Source: Spirochaetia bacterium
GTDB taxonomy: Bacteria > Spirochaetota > Spirochaetia > SZUA-6 > Bin103
Direction: 5' to 3'
DNA: 64,000 nt
Assembly (NCBI GenBank): GCA_965203055.1
Contig: OZ241863.1
Span: 73,313-137,312, forward strand
Positions 15,001 through 25,971 of this stretch are shown here, piece by piece; positions within the stretch are counted from its first letter, which is position 1; each line of letters begins with the position of its first letter. Under the pieces are notes generated by a model that searched no databases, was not told where the DNA came from, and saw only the letters and a list, made by a program, of their open reading frames with translations. Position numbers and translations under genes: made by a program.

Positions 15001-16749
15001 CTACTCCACGGCGTCGCAGAACACCAGTTCCCAGCCGTGGAACACCAAGGTCAGGCCGGTGAAGCGCACGCCGGGATACTGCCGCGCCAGCCGCTGGTCC
15101 GCCAGATAGCGCCGGAGCTGCGCCGCTGCCTCCGCGGCCGCCGCCGCCACGCCGGCCGCGGCCGCCGACTCGCCGCGCTTGAGGTACTTGAGCTCGATCA
15201 GGTAGCCGTAGCGGAGGTGCGGAAAGGCGGCTACCAGCGGCTCCAGCGCGATGTCCGCGTGCCCCTTGCCCAGCTCCGCCTCCGAGCGGAACTCGTAGAA
15301 GTCGGTCACGCTCAGGTAGGCTGCCAGAAATCCCTGGATCACCTTCTCCCCGGCGATGTAGTCCCGAATCCCCGTCTGCCGCGCAATCGCCTCGCTCAGA
15401 AACTCGAACACCGGCCGCCACTCTCCCTCGTTCGCCATCCGCATCAACAACTGCTCGAAGCGAAACAGGTTCACTGAAAAGACCTTCACGTCGCGGTAGC
15501 CGTCGCGCAGGAAGCCGTACATCAGCCGCTTTACGGTCTGGTTGGGGATCGCCAGCCGAGGCAGGCCGCCAGGCGCACCGCGGATGCTCAACAAGCCGAA
15601 GAAGTGCAGCAGCGAGAGGAAGTTTTCCGGTTCGGCAAGCCGTTCCAGCGGGAAGCCGGGCTGGATGCGGGCGGCTGCCTGCTCCTCGCCAATGACGTCC
15701 CGCAGCAGATCGAAGTTGCCGTTCAACTGCCGGCCGACCACCAGCAGGTGGCGCAGCTTGCCGTAGTCGATGCGCACGTTGGTGTCGATCAGGTACTTGG
15801 GTACCCGGCGGTTGGGGATGGAGTACTTGAGATAATAGAGCACCATGTCGGAGTTGTAGAGGTCGGTCGATGCCTCTTCGGAGAAGCGGTAGCCATTGTA
15901 CCACTCGCCCATGATGCCCAGCGCGGTGTCGGCGTCCTGGTTGAAGACGCCCAGGTCGCGGTACGTCTCGACCAGGCGCCGCACCTCCGCCGCGGTGAAG
16001 CCGACCATCTCGTTGAAGTCCGGTTCCAGGCTGATGTTGGCGCCGATGTTGAAGCCGCTGGTGACGTCGTCCATGGTGACCGGCGACACGCCGGTGATGA
16101 ACAGGCGCTCCAGGCCTCCCCCGATGCGGTCGGCGCCGCCCTTGAGGGCGGCGAAGAAGTTGCGGTAGAAGCCGCCGCCGTGGGTGAAGGAATGGTACGC
16201 CTCGGCGCCGTGCCAGGCCAGCACGGTGTTGGCGAAGTTGTCGTACTCGTCGATCAGCACGTACAGCGGGATGTCGTGGTCGCCCGCGTACCGGAACAGC
16301 GCGGAAAGCCTGGTGGCGATGGACGGCCGGGCGAGGATGTCGCGTACCGCCTCTGCGGGAAACAGGTCAGGGTGCCTCCGCAGCGTCCCCTGGAGTTCGA
16401 CGTCGCAGTAACTTTCGAACTCCCGCTCCAAGGTTTCGAGCTTGTCGTTGACCATAGAGAAGTTGAAGCGCAGGGTGACGTAGCGGCTGCGTTCCTCGGT
16501 CGGGCTGCGCCCGATGTCGGTGCCGGCGTACGTGGCGTCGAAGCGGTCGGCCCAGAAGCGGTCGTAGTAGCTCTCCAGCAGCGCCACCCACAGTGACTTG
16601 CCGAAGCGCCGCGGGCGAATCAGGAAGGCGTAGCGCTCCTGTTCCAGGCGGCGCAGGAAGCGGGTCTTGTCGACGTACAGCCACCGGTTCAGGCGGATGC
16701 GGCTGAATGACGCCTCACCGTAGGGAATGCGCGGATAAGCAGGTACCAT
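15001..16749 (-). CDS. AAA-ATPase (DUF1703-type) with C-terminal PD-(D/E)xK nuclease-like domain
   Basis: 582 aa. Walker A RRFGKSL. C-terminal …GHADIALEP…YLIELKY… has the PD-(D/E)xK pattern. GC is lower than the flanks. Confidence 0.6.
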   Translation of the reverse strand: MVPAYPRIPYGEASFSRIRLNRWLYVDKTRFLRRLEQERYAFLIRPRRFGKSLWVALLESYYDRFWADRFDATYAGTDIGRSPTEERSRYVTLRFNFSMVNDKLETLEREFESYCDVELQGTLRRHPDLFPAEAVRDILARPSIATRLSALFRYAGDHDIPLYVLIDEYDNFANTVLAWHGAEAYHSFTHGGGFYRNFFAALKGGADRIGGGLERLFITGVSPVTMDDVTSGFNIGANISLEPDFNEMVGFTAAEVRRLVETYRDLGVFNQDADTALGIMGEWYNGYRFSEEASTDLYNSDMVLYYLKYSIPNRRVPKYLIDTNVRIDYGKLRHLLVVGRQLNGNFDLLRDVIGEEQAAARIQPGFPLERLAEPENFLSLLHFFGLLSIRGAPGGLPRLAIPNQTVKRLMYGFLRDGYRDVKVFSVNLFRFEQLLMRMANEGEWRPVFEFLSEAIARQTGIRDYIAGEKVIQGFLAAYLSVTDFYEFRSEAELGKGHADIALEPLVAAFPHLRYGYLIELKYLKRGESAAAAGVAAAAAEAAAQLRRYLADQRLARQYPGVRFTGLTLVFHGWELVFCDAVE

Positions 16750-16757
16750 GACTGCGG

Positions 16758-18377
16758 TCAGACCGACGGGGCGACGATCCGGGCGATGGCGGCGCGCATC
16801 CAGCCGGTAGCGGCCAGATCGGCCGGCCGCAGATCGAAGCCGGTCAAGTAGCTGGGCCGATGGGACTTCATGCTCAGAAACTGGTAGAACCGCTCGAAGT
16901 CATCGGCAGCGGTCGCCACCGTAATCTCCTCGATAGCCCGCGCCTTTAGCTCTTTGGAGAACGTCTTGATGATCTCGTAGCTGTTGCGATTCTTCTCCAG
17001 GCTGACCAGCAGGCGGTCCCGCACCGTGCGCATGGTCATGGCGATCGCGCTCAGATAGCGCGACCGGTCGAAACCGGCCGGAGCGAGCTCCGCTACGTTG
17101 TCAGGATGATAGAGATAGTTCTCGATACAATAGTGGCGCAGCACCAGCAAACGCGGACGGTTGCGGCGTATCTCGTCGAGCTCCTCGGTGCCCAGAAAGT
17201 CACGGTCGATCAGGCCGTGAAACCCGTCCGTTCCTGCCGTCTGGATAGAGATCGAATTCTTGTCCTGTGCGGAAATGAACAATGTGTCCTGCAGGCCGAT
17301 CGCATTGTAGAGCAAGGCGTCCTTATTCTCGCACAGGATCAGACGCTTGTTTGGAAACACCTTGAGCGCCGAGCTGCGCGGTACGGCGATATCGAATACG
17401 CGCTCGGTCTTCGGGGCAGGCCGCAGCACCTGCGGCCGATCGAAGTCCAAATCGTCGAAGTCGACGATCGCGGTGTCGCTGCTGGAGCTTCCGTAGTCGA
17501 TGAACCCGAGCGAGTGGCTGGCCGTCCACAGTTGCGAGTGTTCGGGAATCCAGCGCTCCACGATCTCCTGCAGCAGAGCGTACTGCAGCCGGGTATGCAG
17601 GTGCACGTCCAGCTCGTCGATGAAGTAGATGGCATTGGCGAAGTGCTCGCGTCGCACGAACAGGTTGAGCAGGATATTGAAGACCTCCTTCTCGCCGCTG
17701 CTGAGCAGGTCGTAGTGGACCTCGGAATGCCCTTTGCTGAATCGAATGTCCGGCGGCTTTCGATCCAGCGCCGGAATCATACCGGTCAGGCGCAGAGTGG
17801 TGGCGTCACCATTGCCGAATACCCTGGCCATCGCGTCGTTGATCGGCTCGAGGAAGCGCGCCTTCATCTGCTCGGAGTCGAATCGCTCTCCCCACACCTC
17901 GCGCAGGATGCGCGCGGTGACGTGCGAGATGTCGGCCTCGAAGCGAGTGTCCCACTCTATCGACCGCTGCGGGCGGTCGTCGTCCGCCGGCAGGTCGACG
18001 GTGCGGCCATTTCGGTGCCGGAGCTCCGGGACCGTTCGGAGCGAACTTCTGCCGTAGAACGCGTCCTTGAGATTCAGGTTGGGAGGTGTAGGGGCGACCG
18101 ATCCGTTCGTCCTGCGGAGGGATGCTCCACCACCGAACGAGCAGGAGACCGCTACCTCCTCGTCCCAGTCCTTCTTGAAGTAGCTCAAGTAATCGTTACG
18201 ACCGACTCCCTTGGAGGGACCGGAAAGAAACTCGAACGCATCGAATACGGATGACTTTCCGCTCCCGTTCGCGCCGATCAGCAGCACCAGCTTTGGCGCC
18301 GAGGCGCACGCTGACAGATCAATCTCAAGATCGGTAAACCGCTTGAAGTTCGTGAGATGGAGGTTGCTGATGTTCAT
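16758..18377 (-). CDS. Fused ABC-type ATPase (AAA_15/21) plus DUF4435/Toprim-like domain protein (PARIS AriA-AriB-like single polypeptide; OLD-family-like)
   Basis: 539 aa. Walker A GANGSGKSS, ABC signature LSSGEKE, Walker B IYFIDELDVHLH. C-terminal LILCENKDA…GLIDRDF resembles the Toprim/DUF4435 acidic motifs. About 60% GC versus about 70% in the flanks. Confidence 0.55.
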   Translation of the reverse strand: MNISNLHLTNFKRFTDLEIDLSACASAPKLVLLIGANGSGKSSVFDAFEFLSGPSKGVGRNDYLSYFKKDWDEEVAVSCSFGGGASLRRTNGSVAPTPPNLNLKDAFYGRSSLRTVPELRHRNGRTVDLPADDDRPQRSIEWDTRFEADISHVTARILREVWGERFDSEQMKARFLEPINDAMARVFGNGDATTLRLTGMIPALDRKPPDIRFSKGHSEVHYDLLSSGEKEVFNILLNLFVRREHFANAIYFIDELDVHLHTRLQYALLQEIVERWIPEHSQLWTASHSLGFIDYGSSSSDTAIVDFDDLDFDRPQVLRPAPKTERVFDIAVPRSSALKVFPNKRLILCENKDALLYNAIGLQDTLFISAQDKNSISIQTAGTDGFHGLIDRDFLGTEELDEIRRNRPRLLVLRHYCIENYLYHPDNVAELAPAGFDRSRYLSAIAMTMRTVRDRLLVSLEKNRNSYEIIKTFSKELKARAIEEITVATAADDFERFYQFLSMKSHRPSYLTGFDLRPADLAATGWMRAAIARIVAPSV

Positions 18378-18557
18378 CTTTTACGCCGCGCATCATACGC
18401 GAACGATCGTGATTCGGCAAACAGGCGCAGGATCGGCACGGATCGGCACTGTGGGAAGCAACTGCCGGGGCCGACGGCGACTCCGCCTTGCGCCGGTGTG
18501 GCGCAAGCGGCGGGTGACGACCGAACGCCTCGACCGGGCACGTGATACGATGTCGGG

Positions 18558-20860: not shown

Positions 20861-21796
20861 GTGATCCGGTCGGTTCGCATCCGCGGCTTCAAGCGGTTCG
20901 GCGAGGTCGAGTTCCGGCTGCCGGGGCACGTCGTGCTGGCCGGGCCCAACGACACCGGCAAGACCACGCTGCTGCAGGCGGTCGCGGCATGGGCGCTCGC
21001 CCTGCGGCGCTGGCGGGAGCTCAACGACTTCAATCGCCGCAACGGCTACCGGCGGGCGCCGCTTGCCCGCCAGGCGTTCGCGGCGGTGCCGGTGCGCAAC
21101 TTCGACCTGCTGTGGACCGACTGCCGCTACCGCGGGCAGATCGAGATCGAGCTGCGTCACGACGCCGGCTGGGCGGTGACGATGGAGTTGATCCCCGACA
21201 GCAGCGAACAGATCTACGTGCGACCGGCGAGTTCCTCGTCCGGCGACCTGCGCCGGATCGATCCGCAGGTGGTGTTCGTGCCGCCGATGACCGGCCTCGG
21301 CACCGACGAACCGGTGCTGCAAGCCCCCAAGATCGAACAGCTTCTCGGCATCGGGCGGCCGGGTGAGGTGCTCCGCAACCTGCTGGCCGAGGCGAACCGC
21401 GACGCGGCGGCATGGGACGCGCTGCAGGCAACGATCGGCAAGCTGTTCGGCTATCGGCTGCTGCCGCCCGACGCCAGCGGCGCGCACATCCGCGCGGAAT
21501 ACACCGTGACCGATCAGGGGCCGCCGTTCGACGTGGCCAGCGCCGGCAGCGGATTCCAACAGGTCCTGATGCTGCTGGCGTTTCTCACCACCCGTCGCCG
21601 CGCCGTCCTGCTGCTGGACGAACCCGACGCCCATCTGCACGTGATCCTGCAAGACGCGATCTACCATGAGTTGCGCAGCGCCGCCGCCCGCCGCGGCTCG
21701 CAGCTCATCGTGGCCACCCATTCGGAAGTGGTCATCAACGCCGTCGAGCCGCGCGAACTCATTCGAGTCGACGCCCCTGGCACTAAGTATCACTAA
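20861..21796 (+). CDS. AAA_21/ABC-like ATPase (defence-associated family), possibly C-terminally truncated
   Basis: Walker A GPNDTGKTT, Walker B LLLDEPDAHLH, H-loop VATHS. The gene has native-like GC, but its last about 8 codons fall in the low-GC DNA that begins near 21780. Confidence 0.55.
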   Translation: MIRSVRIRGFKRFGEVEFRLPGHVVLAGPNDTGKTTLLQAVAAWALALRRWRELNDFNRRNGYRRAPLARQAFAAVPVRNFDLLWTDCRYRGQIEIELRHDAGWAVTMELIPDSSEQIYVRPASSSSGDLRRIDPQVVFVPPMTGLGTDEPVLQAPKIEQLLGIGRPGEVLRNLLAEANRDAAAWDALQATIGKLFGYRLLPPDASGAHIRAEYTVTDQGPPFDVASAGSGFQQVLMLLAFLTTRRRAVLLLDEPDAHLHVILQDAIYHELRSAAARRGSQLIVATHSEVVINAVEPRELIRVDAPGTKYH

Positions 21797-21847
21797 GATT
21801 GTCGGGTATGTAAGTTTGGTCACCCATTATGGGATACATAGAAGCCG

Positions 21848-22732
21848 ATGGACTCACCGAAGACACCGATTGACTTGTTCGGGCGCCCGGCGTACGTCCG
21901 GCCAAACGGGTCGCTGCTCAAGTGGATCGGCAACAAGTATAAGGTCGCAGAGGAGATTACCTCCTATTTCCCGGCCGAGATGCGGGCCTTCTACGACGTG
22001 TTTGTCGGCGGCGGTTCAATCCTGGCCACGGTAGCGCCGGCTCGCGGCGTGGGGTCGGACTCATTCGCGCCCTTGATCGAAATATGGAGCATGATTCGGT
22101 CCGATCCCGCTGTGGTCAAAGGGTGGTACGAGCAGCGCTGGCGGTATGCCATGTCGGGGGACCGCCGGGAGCGGTATGAAGAGATCAAGGCTTCATACAA
22201 CGCCCGGTCGAATGGAGCCGACTTCCTGTATCTCACCCGCGCTTGCTACGGCGGCGTCATCAGGTTCAGGAAGCATGACGGTTATATGTCCACGCCGGTG
22301 GGCATTCATCGGCCCATCGAGCCCCGCAACTTCGCCAAGCGGGTGGACGAATGGCACGTGAGAGTACAAGGCACCGAGTTTATTCGTGCCGATTATGCCG
22401 ACGTAATGGAACGCTGTGAGGCCGGAGATATGGTCTATTGCGACCCTCCGTATACCCACAGTCAAGCTATTTTGTATGGCGCCCAGGACTTCAGCATCGT
22501 TCAGTTGTTCGAGTCGATCGAACGCTGCAAGACGCGAGGTGTTCGCGTCGCCCTGAGCATCGATGGTACCAAGAAGTCCGGGAGTGAGAACTGCCATGTT
22601 CCCATACCGGAAGGGTTGTTCGAGCGGCAGATCCTGGTCAAGACCGGGAGATCGATGCTGCGGCGCTTTCAGATGGATGGCCAGACCCTGGAGTCGGAGG
22701 TCGTGGCGGATCGCCTATTGCTGACGTACTAA
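21848..22732 (+). CDS. Dam-class (D12, alpha-group) DNA N6-adenine methyltransferase
   Basis: KWIGNKY N-terminal motif, FVGGGS (motif I), VYCDPPY (motif IV). About 57% GC. Confidence 0.8.
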   Translation: MDSPKTPIDLFGRPAYVRPNGSLLKWIGNKYKVAEEITSYFPAEMRAFYDVFVGGGSILATVAPARGVGSDSFAPLIEIWSMIRSDPAVVKGWYEQRWRYAMSGDRRERYEEIKASYNARSNGADFLYLTRACYGGVIRFRKHDGYMSTPVGIHRPIEPRNFAKRVDEWHVRVQGTEFIRADYADVMERCEAGDMVYCDPPYTHSQAILYGAQDFSIVQLFESIERCKTRGVRVALSIDGTKKSGSENCHVPIPEGLFERQILVKTGRSMLRRFQMDGQTLESEVVADRLLLTY

Positions 22733-22750
22733 GCTCCTGATGGCGATCAG

Positions 22751-25102
22751 TCAGATGGAGGAAGCTTCAAGGGCATCCCAAAATCGCCGTATCTGTGGCG
22801 GCACGTCGCTTGCTTTGTTTGCTCCTGACATGATCTTTTCCGGCGGAAACTGTCTGCGCAAGAACTCCTTGGCTGGCCCTGAAGCTGATTTTCGATCGAT
22901 CGTCACTATACCGTGCTCAAGGAGAAGCCTGCGTAACCTGCGCCAGCGCCAGGAATCATGAAACAGACGACCCCCATCATCAACGTCGTAGATCGGATTC
23001 GCTCGCTCGTATGCGCGCATCAGCCATTCGAGCAATTCCATTGATCGATCCGACACGTTCCGCCTATCTTGATCTGAATCAGTATCTACCGATGTTCCAC
23101 AATCGGACAGCACACGCATGATCTTATCGGGAATACGTATTGTCTCCTTTCCCTTATCGATCAGACTCTGAACTCCAGCGACATCACGTGGAACCCGGAG
23201 TCCATTCAGTTCCAGCCGGGTGCTCCCGACCTCCACCATTGGCTCCTCGAGCAAGATGTTGTGTGCGTAACACTCTACAAACTTCGTGGCTCCCAAATTC
23301 GTCCGTCGTACTGTAACGCCGTCCAGCGTACAATTTCGCAAAGTGACGCCGGAAAGATCACCGCCGGGAAAGATTACGTTACTTATCTTGAGCCCTGCTA
23401 TGTCAGCCTCGTTGTTCGACCCGAATGCCTTCAACAAGGCCAAGACGATCAGTCCGGCATTTTCCCGAACCTGAGACGCTCGTCGCCATTCGTCACGTCC
23501 CGCCATCGCCAGACGGTTCAGCATTACTTGAAGATCATCAAGAGTTGACAAGGTGTCGTTTGTCATCACCTCTGCTGCAAATCGTTCAGCGACCAACTCG
23601 GGCAACGCAGCGCGACTCAGGATCGCACGCAGGTCTGAATTCGAACCGTACTGCTCGGCAATAACACGGGCAAGGAAGTAGAAGAAATAGACCTCATGCT
23701 CGAACCCGATCGTCTCATGCTTCTCACTGTGGGTGAGAAATGCAAGTGTCGGCATCCGTTCAATGATGATCTGTCTCTCAGACTCGTCAATTTCATCGTG
23801 AAGAAAAAACTCTGCGACTTCCCTTACGGATACACCATCGAGCTCGCGGGTCTCCTGGTTCCACATCTCTTCGGCAAGTTCTCGTACGATCATTTCAAGC
23901 TGATCTTCGGACAACAGCGGTCGCTGTTGGCGATCGAGGATCTTCTCCGCCTGTTCCCGCTTCAGGAAGCTATGGATCAAGGTGTCAAGCAAGTTGCCAT
24001 CTTCAGAAAATTCGCTACCCGTTAGTACCAAATCGACAGTCTTGGCAAAGAACAGCGGCTTATCCATGAGATGACTATCTTGTTGGAACGCCGCGCGGAC
24101 TTTTTTTCGTAACTCATTCTTCCTTTCCGTCGGCAGCGAGTATTGACGCGCGATCTCATTCAGGTAGTCTGACCGGTGGGCGTCGTCCCACGGCGCTATC
24201 TCCACGGGTATGTGCGACCATCGCTGTTTCCCCGTCGCAGCGGCTCGGTCGGCGCGCCGGAGGAACTCTTCCTCGTAATAAGTTGATCTAGCTGAGGTAA
24301 TTATTCTACCGTAGCCATCCAGTTGTTCCAGAAAAGTCGCCAGAGTACTGAAGGCGTCATCATACCCACTGACCCCTAGAAGCTCGTCGAATCCGTCTAT
24401 CACGGGCACCAACAGTCCTACGCGGACCAGGGTTGCAACGGAATGGTAAGTCAGGTTGACCCTCAGATCCTGCAGTTCCGTAGCAAGCGCTTCGTGCAGC
24501 CGCGCCAGGGCGCGGCCTTGCGCATTCACATATAGCAGCAACTTTCCCGTACTGCCGCGCAGGTACCGGTCGGCCTGTTGCCAGACCAGCTCCTGTAGCA
24601 CCCGCGTCTTGCCGGCGCCGGCGCCGCCGGTGGCCATGATGACCTCGGTCACATCAGGCTCGTCATCTTCCATGAGTTCAGTGAGCAACTCCGTGGCGGG
24701 TTGGGGTCCTTTCAGCACCCCGCCCCCATCCGGGCAGCGAGCTCCGGTAGGAACGAATATTTTGTCTTGTCTGGACCGATAGATCATGCGAGCGACATGC
24801 TTCAGATCTGCCATCCGTGTATCCGCAAGAAAAACGGTATACGGCAGGGTCGTACCGTTGGCGCTTGCGGTAACCTCGTGGTCTCGCGAAACCGTAAAAT
24901 TAGCTTCCCGAGGTTCGCCGCGCATTTGCCACTCGGCCTGGAGTCTCCTCCCCGTTGCAGAGATCACGTGGATACCACCCGGGTCTGCAAATGACGTCAG
25001 GTCGCTTTCGATGCGCTCGAGGTCTGCGTCGTATGTCTCGCGCACTTGATCAGCTCCCCAGTTGATGGACGGTAAGCCCCTCGCTGACCAGCGCAGCGTC
25101 AT
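22751..25102 (-). CDS. NACHT/STAND-class NTPase with unknown N-terminal domain and C-terminal pentapeptide repeats
   Basis: 783 aa. Walker A MATGGAGAGKT, Walker B VPVIDGFDEL (NACHT-style hhhhDGxDE), a long helical region, and a C-terminal run of A(D/N)LxG-type pentapeptide repeats (…NVIFPGGDLSGVTLRNCTLDGVTVRRTNLGATKFVEC…). About 52% GC. Confidence 0.7.
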   Translation of the reverse strand: MTLRWSARGLPSINWGADQVRETYDADLERIESDLTSFADPGGIHVISATGRRLQAEWQMRGEPREANFTVSRDHEVTASANGTTLPYTVFLADTRMADLKHVARMIYRSRQDKIFVPTGARCPDGGGVLKGPQPATELLTELMEDDEPDVTEVIMATGGAGAGKTRVLQELVWQQADRYLRGSTGKLLLYVNAQGRALARLHEALATELQDLRVNLTYHSVATLVRVGLLVPVIDGFDELLGVSGYDDAFSTLATFLEQLDGYGRIITSARSTYYEEEFLRRADRAAATGKQRWSHIPVEIAPWDDAHRSDYLNEIARQYSLPTERKNELRKKVRAAFQQDSHLMDKPLFFAKTVDLVLTGSEFSEDGNLLDTLIHSFLKREQAEKILDRQQRPLLSEDQLEMIVRELAEEMWNQETRELDGVSVREVAEFFLHDEIDESERQIIIERMPTLAFLTHSEKHETIGFEHEVYFFYFLARVIAEQYGSNSDLRAILSRAALPELVAERFAAEVMTNDTLSTLDDLQVMLNRLAMAGRDEWRRASQVRENAGLIVLALLKAFGSNNEADIAGLKISNVIFPGGDLSGVTLRNCTLDGVTVRRTNLGATKFVECYAHNILLEEPMVEVGSTRLELNGLRVPRDVAGVQSLIDKGKETIRIPDKIMRVLSDCGTSVDTDSDQDRRNVSDRSMELLEWLMRAYERANPIYDVDDGGRLFHDSWRWRRLRRLLLEHGIVTIDRKSASGPAKEFLRRQFPPEKIMSGANKASDVPPQIRRFWDALEASSI

Positions 25103-25649
25103 TCATCGCTGAACCGACCTCTCTGGTACGCATCCATACGACCGCATCGGGGTGGCCTGCGTGCGCTGAGAGCGCGCCCGGGAGAAGATCGTCATCGTCT
25201 GTCACAATGCCAACACAGGTCCGCGCCTGCGCCGCGGCATATAGCGCATCGCAGGCCAGCATGCCGTCTACCATTTTCTGTACGTAGCGGCGGTCGGTGC
25301 CGCTCCCGGTGGGAGGCCGCATCCGGCGCCGCACCGTGCCTCGCGGGTGAAACATCGGGAATTGGATCATCGAGGTGGCAAGCGCCGGACGGACGATCAG
25401 GCCATTGCGCCGGCCGCGCAGCACCGGCAGCAACTCATGCAGCCATGACGCATGGCGGCTCGGCCATCCCTGCTCAGTGATCCATCCTCCGTACAGCCGG
25501 AGATCGAGCTCGCGCGCGTCCGGGAACAGGGTTGCGAACGCGCGAGACACCTGCTCCACGATGGTCAGAGTAACGAGTTCCAGATCAGCTTTCGAGTTCT
25601 GGTCACGGCGGCGAAAATTGTACCAGTCGACAAGAGCCAGCCCTTGCAT
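25050..25649 (-). CDS. NYN/YacP-like (PIN-fold) nuclease domain protein
   Basis: 199 aa. N-terminal LALVDWYNF (the VDGYN-type motif of NYN/YacP) and a distal acidic cluster VGIVTDDDDLLPG. Overlaps the start of the STAND gene by 53 nt, giving the operon order NYN then STAND. Confidence 0.45.
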   Translation of the reverse strand: MQGLALVDWYNFRRRDQNSKADLELVTLTIVEQVSRAFATLFPDARELDLRLYGGWITEQGWPSRHASWLHELLPVLRGRRNGLIVRPALATSMIQFPMFHPRGTVRRRMRPPTGSGTDRRYVQKMVDGMLACDALYAAAQARTCVGIVTDDDDLLPGALSAHAGHPDAVVWMRTREVGSAMNDAALVSEGLTVHQLGS

Positions 25650-25793
25650 GAGTTACTACCCAACCCAATATACGACCTGGAGCGGGGGGTCAGCTTTGGG
25701 AAGCGGCCGGCCCGCCCGGTAGTGGTACGCGACGGGCCGGCTGCCGGTAATGGTGACGGAGGCGCTCCGGTTGCCGTTAGCCCACCCGCCTGA

Positions 25794-25877
25794 TGCCCGG
25801 AAGAGGACTCGAACCTCCACAGCCGTACGGCCACCAGACCCTGAACCTGGCGTGTCTACCAATTTCACCATCCGGGC
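25794..25877 (-). tRNA. tRNA-Leu (anticodon CAG)
   Basis: The reverse complement gives GCCCGGATGGTGAAATTGGTAGACACGCCAGGTTCAGGGTCTGGTGGCCGTACGGCTGTGGAGGTTCGAGTCCTCTTCCGGGCA: a long-arm class II tRNA with anticodon loop CTCAGGG. Its 3' end faces the low-GC islet. Confidence 0.85.
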
Positions 25878-25971
25878 AGGATGACGGTAACAACCTACCC
25901 CTGCCCGGCACTCCTGTCAAGACCTTGAGACGAGACGAGACGAGATCTGCGCCGCGCGGCGGGAGCGCCGG

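Follow-up and report, generated by a model that had tools for sequence, protein, structure and literature searches.

A candidate single-chain PARIS relative in a Spirochaetia genome: a compact ABC ATPase fused to an AriB-like Toprim domain

We analyzed a 64,000-nucleotide stretch of contig OZ241863.1 from a Spirochaetia bacterium (hereafter the window; positions are counted from its first letter) and found that the gene at 16758..18377 on the reverse (–) strand probably encodes a compact, AriAB-like single-chain relative of the PARIS immune system, in which, by analogy with characterized systems, an ATPase half would gate a Toprim nuclease half and thereby abort infection. Fused PARIS genes are known already, and the protein described here is best regarded as a divergent variant of merged PARIS, compact in size and close to the limit of what current models detect. 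Merged ariAB genes, forming a 'merged 1' and a 'merged 2' clade and said to stem from a single event, were published by Burman et al. 2024 (PMC11464382), who defined them bioinformatically only, from DefenseFinder hits with >75% coverage; two AriAB models (PDLC02981 and PDLC02982) exist in PADLOC. A first-pass annotation of the window, made from the letters alone, had proposed a PARIS-like fusion in a single polypeptide. The single chain of 539 residues and the rank of AriAB as best-matching model agree with that proposal, whereas the fusion as such is not new. Overall, the proposal is supported: the checks suggested along with it turned out favorably, and neither of the outcomes named there as refuting it was observed. 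A literature search returned no experiments on this compact family or on any merged AriAB.

The open reading frame begins with ATG and encodes 539 aa. Because 1565 database proteins match this protein at E ≤ 0.001, many of them full-length orthologues (525–560 aa, with the closer ones 57–89% identical), we regard the gene as real; an exact-sequence look-up of the 539-aa protein itself returned no record. A promoter-like site (TTGCCG, a 17-nt spacer and TATGAT; 18392..18420, on the reverse strand like all other features given below), obtained by a consensus scan and a pattern match only, ends 14 nt upstream of the ATG. An Rfam scan of the 64-kb window detected two tRNAs only. Translation of 16758..18377 confirmed each of the motifs quoted in the first-pass annotation at its place, namely GANGSGKSS (residues 35–43), LSSGEKE (225–231), IYFIDELDVHLH (250–261), LILCENKDA (346–354) and GLIDRDF (388–394), and all of them were invariant or near-invariant among 25 diverse family members with identities down to 40%.

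Residues 1–300 (17478..18377) correspond to an ABC ATPase domain of the AAA_15/AAA_21 type, as indicated by Pfam, the structure model and Foldseek. The Pfam cut-offs were passed for both AAA_15 (63 bits; cut-off 32.1) and AAA_21 (57.1 bits; cut-off 27), so that the N-terminal half had been correctly named an ABC ATPase. Across the same 25 members, invariant residues were found in the Walker A motif (18249..18275; G35, N37, G38, G40, K41 and S42), in the ABC signature (17685..17705; L225, S226, G228, E229 and K230), and in the Walker B motif and D-loop (17595..17630; Y251 to E255, including D254 and the catalytic E255, together with D257, H259 and L260), and the H-loop histidine H288 was likewise invariant. 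The prediction that this ATPase is catalytically intact is well supported by these residues. The AriA, PtuA and AbiLi models of PADLOC gave similar scores on the ATPase half, and a Foldseek search of the full-length structure model (pLDDT 70.7), which shows a normal ABC head, against the PDB returned PtuA as the top matches, with RecN and SMC heads also found; AriA and AriB were absent from the top 50, which held generic ABC heads only. Judged by sequence and model, the ATPase is not specifically AriA-like. A housekeeping role of the RecF, SMC, RecN or Rad50 kind was rejected, since the score for RecF was 27.3 bits against a cut-off of 172 and those for Rad50 and SMC were 14–18 bits against cut-offs of 700–1087; these NCBIfam matches covered the Walker A region only.

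The protein differs from the two-gene PARIS of E. coli B185 (AriA and AriB; PDB 8UX9 and 8V46) in that the two parts are joined in one chain, and it also differs in the architecture of the ATPase. Here, 214 residues separate the lysine of Walker A from the glutamate of Walker B (K41–E255), compared with 354 in AriA (K39–E393). Since this span is shorter by approximately 140 residues, the insertions IS1 and IS2 and the coiled coil, which build the homohexameric propeller of AriA, cannot all be present; as a set, they are absent from the protein by span and by model, in which the insert consists of two helices of approximately 20 residues only. Conservation revealed a family-specific motif in this insert, FYGRSS..R..P.L...D.DRP..(Y)I..D.RFE.D (residues 107–149; 17931..18059), with F107, Y108, G109, R110, R114, L119, D134, P136, D143, R145 and D149 invariant; its residues 112–147 were modelled at pLDDT <50.

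The ATPase domain is followed by a conserved linker (residues 301–340; 17358..17477) with a DFD.LDFD motif, in which D306, F307, D308, F312, D313, P320, K323 and P333 are conserved, then by the Toprim core of an AriB/DUF4435-like domain with a beta-alpha-beta-alpha-beta-alpha-beta fold (residues 341–431; 17085..17357), and finally by a C-terminal helical subdomain (residues 432–539; 16761..17084). For membership of the C-terminal domain in DUF4435 (PF14491), the sequence evidence alone is marginal: the Pfam score was 14.6 bits, below the cut-off of 27, and weak matches were found in 5 of 21 family members. However, the link was recovered when profiles were compared. A profile of the domain family, searched against 5.8 billion sequences, detected two stand-alone Pfam-DUF4435 proteins, P0222 (E 2.4e-5) and P0223 (E 1.2e-4), and an hhalign comparison of the domain family with the P0222 family gave a probability of 98.8% (E 8.7e-17) over 91 columns that span the whole Toprim core. 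When the C-terminal 220 aa were searched alone, AriB was the sole defense model of PADLOC that matched (7e-6, with matches listed up to E ≤ 10). These results support well the view that the C-terminal domain of approximately 200 residues (Toprim core and helical subdomain) is homologous to the DUF4435/Toprim nuclease AriB, as the suggested resemblance to DUF4435/AriB had anticipated, at an amino-acid identity to AriB of 14%.

This view is also supported by the predicted active site. The PARIS mechanism and the active-site residues of AriB have been described (PMC11464382, PMC10802264 and PMC12409363), and the AriB substitution E26A abolishes defense (PMC11464382). Mapped to AriB numbering (E26, D30, D88, E90 and E122) through the DUF4435 motifs and not by structural superposition, four of the five metal-binding positions are kept in the 25 diverse members. 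E350 (17328..17330), equivalent to the first Toprim glutamate E26, is invariant and aligns with the invariant E27 of the DUF4435 family; D391-R392-D393 (17199..17207), the Toprim DxD motif equivalent to D88 and E90, is invariant and aligns with D79-R80-D81; and E419 in the IENYLYHP motif (17121..17123), at the position of E122, is present in at least 90% of members and aligns with the invariant E107. The fifth position, D30, is occupied by A354 in this protein and is variable within the family, which is a further difference from E. coli PARIS. The absence of a D30 equivalent, together with the fusion of the domain to signaling modules (receiver and Roc-COR) elsewhere, would agree with a Toprim-like domain that serves as a non-catalytic binding or regulatory module, so that the protein would act only as an ATP-driven sensor or scaffold. 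However, we consider this very improbable, because E350, D391, D393 and also E399 are invariant and E419 is kept in at least 90% of members across phyla, and because the domain always occupies the C-terminal 'output' position in fusions.

Matches to other Toprim-containing systems were also sought. The C-terminal domain showed no match to AbiLii, MAD4, RloB or DUF4276, with AriB the only match in PADLOC and DUF4435 the only one among the relevant Pfam families; membership in AbiL, MADS3-4 or RloAB was rejected, since the AbiLi and mad3 matches were confined to the generic ATPase half. At the level of structure, Foldseek of the C-terminal domain against the PDB gave nothing significant (best E 0.098), and sequence and profile searches of PDB chains with the protein and three profiles, including that of the P0222 family, found neither AriA nor AriB; the matches to designed helical repeats in these searches were rejected as low-complexity artefacts. 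The first-pass annotation had also named, as its alternative, a variant of the class-1 OLD enzymes, i.e. a single-chain ABC ATPase and Toprim protein that nicks or degrades DNA like P2 Old and Thermus OLD. The arrangement in one chain is common to both. However, the Toprim_OLD family (PF20469) gave no Pfam signal in the C-terminal domain, the structural match to class-1 OLD (P2 Old and Thermus scotoductus OLD, 6P74) was far weaker than that to AriB, which the helical subdomain also resembles. The evidence thus favors the AriB-like reading over the OLD variant, which we consider unlikely.

The AriB-like reading of the C-terminal domain extends to the protein as a whole, for which the best PADLOC model was AriAB (PDLC02981; 3.4e-20), with a weak score of 70 bits. 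The alignment crosses the fusion junction, with residues 219–426 matched to model positions 304–525 of 694, and covers approximately 40% of the model, compared with the >75% coverage of the hits retained by Burman et al.; a plasmid search with a DUF4435 query for a reference AriAB gave one unrelated match. The family may belong to the published merged clades or may go back to a separate fusion. Merged AriAB and the present protein are alike in carrying an N-terminal AAA_15/21 ATPase and a C-terminal DUF4435-like Toprim domain in one chain, whereas the latter is shorter than the matched model by approximately 90 residues in the ATPase insert and approximately 55 at the C-terminus. Family members scored 42–77 bits with AriAB, and in one Bacteroidales member the model was undetected at E ≤ 1e-8. 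A full-length homologue on plasmid pZMOB01 of Zymomonas mobilis ATCC 10988 (WP_014466397.1), 29% identical, scored 101 bits and was also matched by the second AriAB model.

Compact two-gene pairs resemble the protein in size. P0222 and P0223, the nearest stand-alone relatives of the C-terminal domain, are encoded directly downstream of short AAA_15/21 ATPases (308 and 349 aa; loci L063 and L065), and PADLOC scores these pairs as AriA and AriB. The short ATPases match the N-terminal half in size and order, and the one of 349 aa is collinear with it (31% identity over 145 aa). From this layout and collinearity, the two halves of the 539-aa protein seem to derive from a compact ATPase–DUF4435 pair of this kind that became fused. 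The similarity is nevertheless remote, with 91 aligned columns, and the pairs differ in being separate genes and in the first DUF4435 motif, which is EG..D compared with CEN.[DN] in the fused family.

In PARIS, the response is activated by the phage anti-restriction proteins Ocr and Ptr1/2, and tRNA-Lys and related tRNAs are cleaved. In the fused protein, the chain is continuous and the insertions that form the hexamer are missing; release of the nuclease therefore cannot be the switch, and activation has to occur by rearrangement or dimerization. We consider ATP-driven dimerization or relief of inhibition in cis the most economical alternative. By analogy with PARIS and OLD-family proteins, the ATPase half would keep the nuclease half inactive in cis in the resting state. 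Once the ATPase had received a phage-derived cue, and with ATP driving a head-to-head dimerization, two Toprim domains might then pair to form an active dimer, in which metals bound at E350, D391, D393 and E419 would allow host nucleic acid to be cut. The likeliest target would be tRNA, as for AriB, and such cutting would stop translation and abort the infection. The substrate, the trigger and the oligomeric state in this scheme are all inferred by analogy.

We further analyzed the distribution of the family. With the patterns used, a genome scan detected 60 loci among 185,579 species genomes, belonging to Acidobacteriota (Vicinamibacterales and Blastocatellia), MAGs labelled Spirochaetia, Bacteroidota, Chloroflexota, Verrucomicrobiota and others, with identity dropping to approximately 40% in Bacteroidota and Chloroflexota. 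In Vicinamibacterales, a PQQ-repeat gene lies upstream in conserved synteny, and the ATPase–Toprim gene has diverged slightly faster than this neighbor (70–89% compared with 74–96% identity). In Blastocatellia, the gene is flanked by glycosyltransferase and nucleotidyltransferase genes, with uvrA nearby. Such stable chromosomal synteny is atypical of defense genes with high mobility. Together with the host-like GC3 in Vicinamibacterales, the high conservation among the closer full-length orthologues and the result of a tblastn search of a phage genome collection, in which no relative was found, it would suit a chromosomal factor for nucleic-acid processing or repair that shares the domain set of OLD and PARIS without being involved in defense; RNase M5 is an example of a housekeeping Toprim nuclease. 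However, the family is patchy across phyla, its neighbors vary between lineages and the RecF, SMC and Rad50 scores are far under their cut-offs, so that the protein does not fall into the housekeeping ABC/SMC-like families. Moreover, the Zymomonas copy, which apart from a short Bacillus match was the only one found by tblastn against plasmids, is flanked by RelE/ParE and YafQ/DinJ toxin–antitoxin modules, and the domain recurs as the C-terminal part of receiver, Roc-COR and ATPase proteins whose genes lie in mobile surroundings (transposase, reverse transcriptase and SocA). We accordingly regard a non-defense role as quite unlikely, if slightly less so than a non-catalytic Toprim domain.

The first-pass annotation had further taken the GC content of the gene as a sign of acquisition. 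The dip itself was measured (0.605 for the gene and 0.70–0.72 for the flanks), although the argument drawn from it is weak. The GC content of the gene is below that of the flanks at nearly every homologous locus, including those of Vicinamibacterales, and because the dip recurs even where GC3 is host-like, it is largely due to the amino-acid composition of the protein. In the window, GC3 is 0.80 for the gene and 0.87–0.93 for the neighboring genes, which is a weak sign of foreign origin.

The lower-GC stretch at 15.0–18.5 kb also includes the adjacent gene (15001..16749), which encodes a 582-aa protein with AAA-ATPase_like and PD-(D/E)XK (PDDEXK_9) matches in Pfam. This gene starts 8 nt past the stop codon of the ATPase–Toprim gene on the same strand and is probably co-transcribed with it. 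The short gap, the shared strand and the shared base composition, as well as a weak homologue directly upstream of the ATPase–Toprim gene at one other locus (L040), raise the possibility of a two-gene module in which the neighbor supplies a second nuclease. However, apart from that weak case, the pairing is missing at the approximately 45 other loci compared, including those of orthologues with 76–85% identity, and the neighbor matched no PADLOC model. Obligatory pairing was rejected on these grounds, and a module of this kind is highly improbable. No universally conserved partner gene was found across the approximately 45 loci. The largest neighbor 'cluster' was rejected as an artefact, in which UvrA and ABC transporters were chained through generic ATPase similarity, and the remaining clusters correspond to lineage-specific synteny.

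An exhaustive profile search for the C-terminal domain detected 334 representative proteins at E ≤ 0.001 (226 at E ≤ 1e-10), and in every fusion found the domain was placed C-terminally. Its N-terminal partners comprised short ATPases, long AAA_15/21 ATPases (950–1056 aa), receiver domains, LRR-Roc-COR and N-termini that could be assigned to no known domain. The receiver fusions are encoded by the third gene of an operon for Y4jQ, a small receiver and a receiver–Toprim protein; this operon adjoins genes for a transposase, a reverse transcriptase and SocA, and the N-terminal regions that it encodes match the PADLOC candidate system PDC-M60. The placement of the domain at the C-terminus of varied sensor-type modules, as seen in these sequences, fits the role of an immune effector. 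Among viral contigs, a single relative was found, which contains the ATPase only and has a degenerate Walker B motif.

These observations also allow a somewhat different interpretation, in which the family is not a descendant of merged AriAB but a separate, unclassified clade of AriB-like Toprim effectors to which at least five kinds of sensor are attached, the compact fusion having an activation logic of its own (inhibition in cis relieved by ATP-driven dimerization) and the phage-borne relative (locus L070, 7992–8954) possibly acting as a dominant-negative counter-defense. We consider this interpretation conceivable but rather doubtful, and favor a compact single-chain relative of PARIS.

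If active, such a protein would be a minimal PARIS-type immune protein that combines a sensor with an effector cutting tRNA or other nucleic acids within 539 residues, without the 425-kDa hexameric scaffold, and would represent a case of nuclease control in which the nuclease cannot leave its sensor. The range of PARIS-like systems would then reach into soil phyla (Acidobacteriota, Bacteroidota and Chloroflexota), in which they are marginally detected by current models, and the Toprim clade would stand out as a portable effector common to other candidate systems. Three features deserve particular interest, namely an architecture reduced to a minimum, a Toprim clade reused as a module and the phage-borne relative that consists of the ATPase only, and the plasmid-encoded protein of Zymomonas mobilis ATCC 10988 (pZMOB01, WP_014466397.1) represents a homologue from a culturable host.

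We identified a family-specific motif, FYGRSS..R..P.L...D.DRP..I..D.RFE.D, at residues 107-149 of the single-chain PARIS relative (window 17931-18059, minus strand), which is strictly conserved in the family. The motif falls inside the insert of the ATPase domain, where AlphaFold pLDDT is below 50. This strict conservation differs from the situation in AriA, the ATPase of two-gene PARIS, whose putative trigger-binding pore residues are poorly conserved.

An ATPase-only relative of 320 aa was found on a 95-kb viral contig (IMG/VR UViG_3300036781_000838; L070, 7992-8954, plus strand). This protein shares 39% identity with residues 4-323 of the fusion protein, ends shortly past the conserved linker without a Toprim domain, and has a degenerate Walker B in which VIYIDDMDCNIN replaces IYFIDELDVHLH. 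One speculative role for the phage ATPase is that of a decoy acting dominant-negatively on the host protein.

Neighbour order around the homologues was lineage-specific: a PQQ-repeat gene lies immediately upstream in Vicinamibacterales (L011-L021), and GT2 glycosyltransferase and nucleotidyltransferase genes flank the homologue in Blastocatellia (L025-L049), with uvrA upstream; uvrA also adjoins the homologue in one Bacteroidota locus (L050). On plasmid pZMOB01 of Zymomonas mobilis ATCC 10988, RelE/ParE and YafQ/DinJ toxin-antitoxin modules lie on either side of a full-length homologue of 532 aa (L066, 13115-14713; WP_014466397.1), whose sole annotation is 'AAA family ATPase'. Given this setting and the culturable host, WP_014466397.1 offers a handy experimental handle for the family.

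In the window itself, the stop codon of the fusion gene is followed after 8 nt by the start of a 582-aa gene (15001-16749, minus strand) encoding a Predicted AAA-ATPase (PF09820) with a PD-(D/E)XK domain (PDDEXK_9), and the two genes share a lower-GC stretch at 15.0-18.5 kb. The 582-aa protein matched no PADLOC or NCBIfam model, and its gene is not kept as a neighbour across the family. A second lower-GC island (20861-25878; GC 0.52-0.61), beside tRNA-Leu(CAG) (25792-25878), encodes a 311-aa AAA_21 ATPase (PADLOC matches to NsnB, AriA and mad3-like) and an N6-adenine methyltransferase of the Dam family (PADLOC MTase_II, 2e-69). Its opposite strand carries the gene for a 783-aa NACHT-like NTPase that contains pentapeptide repeats. 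The region is probably an integrated defence-type island.

The AriB-related, Toprim-like domain also closes database proteins of other architectures, including an LRR-Roc-COR (ROCO) protein and long AAA_15/21 ATPases (P0270, 843 aa; P0262, 952 aa; P0347, 1056 aa; P0240 and P0252, about 900 aa; P0242 and P0289, about 420 aa), and the N-termini of some of these matched no Pfam family. Moreover, the domain is joined to a receiver domain in proteins of 340-355 aa encoded by the third gene of an operon with conserved order, namely Y4jQ (PF27260, about 1150-1190 aa), followed by a small protein resembling a receiver and then the receiver-Toprim protein (L067, 2100-7023; L068 and L069, 2034-7068). 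This operon was found in Sphingobacterium faecium and metagenomes, adjoined by transposase, reverse-transcriptase and SocA genes, and its N-terminal regions matched the PADLOC candidates PDC-M60B and PDC-M60C.
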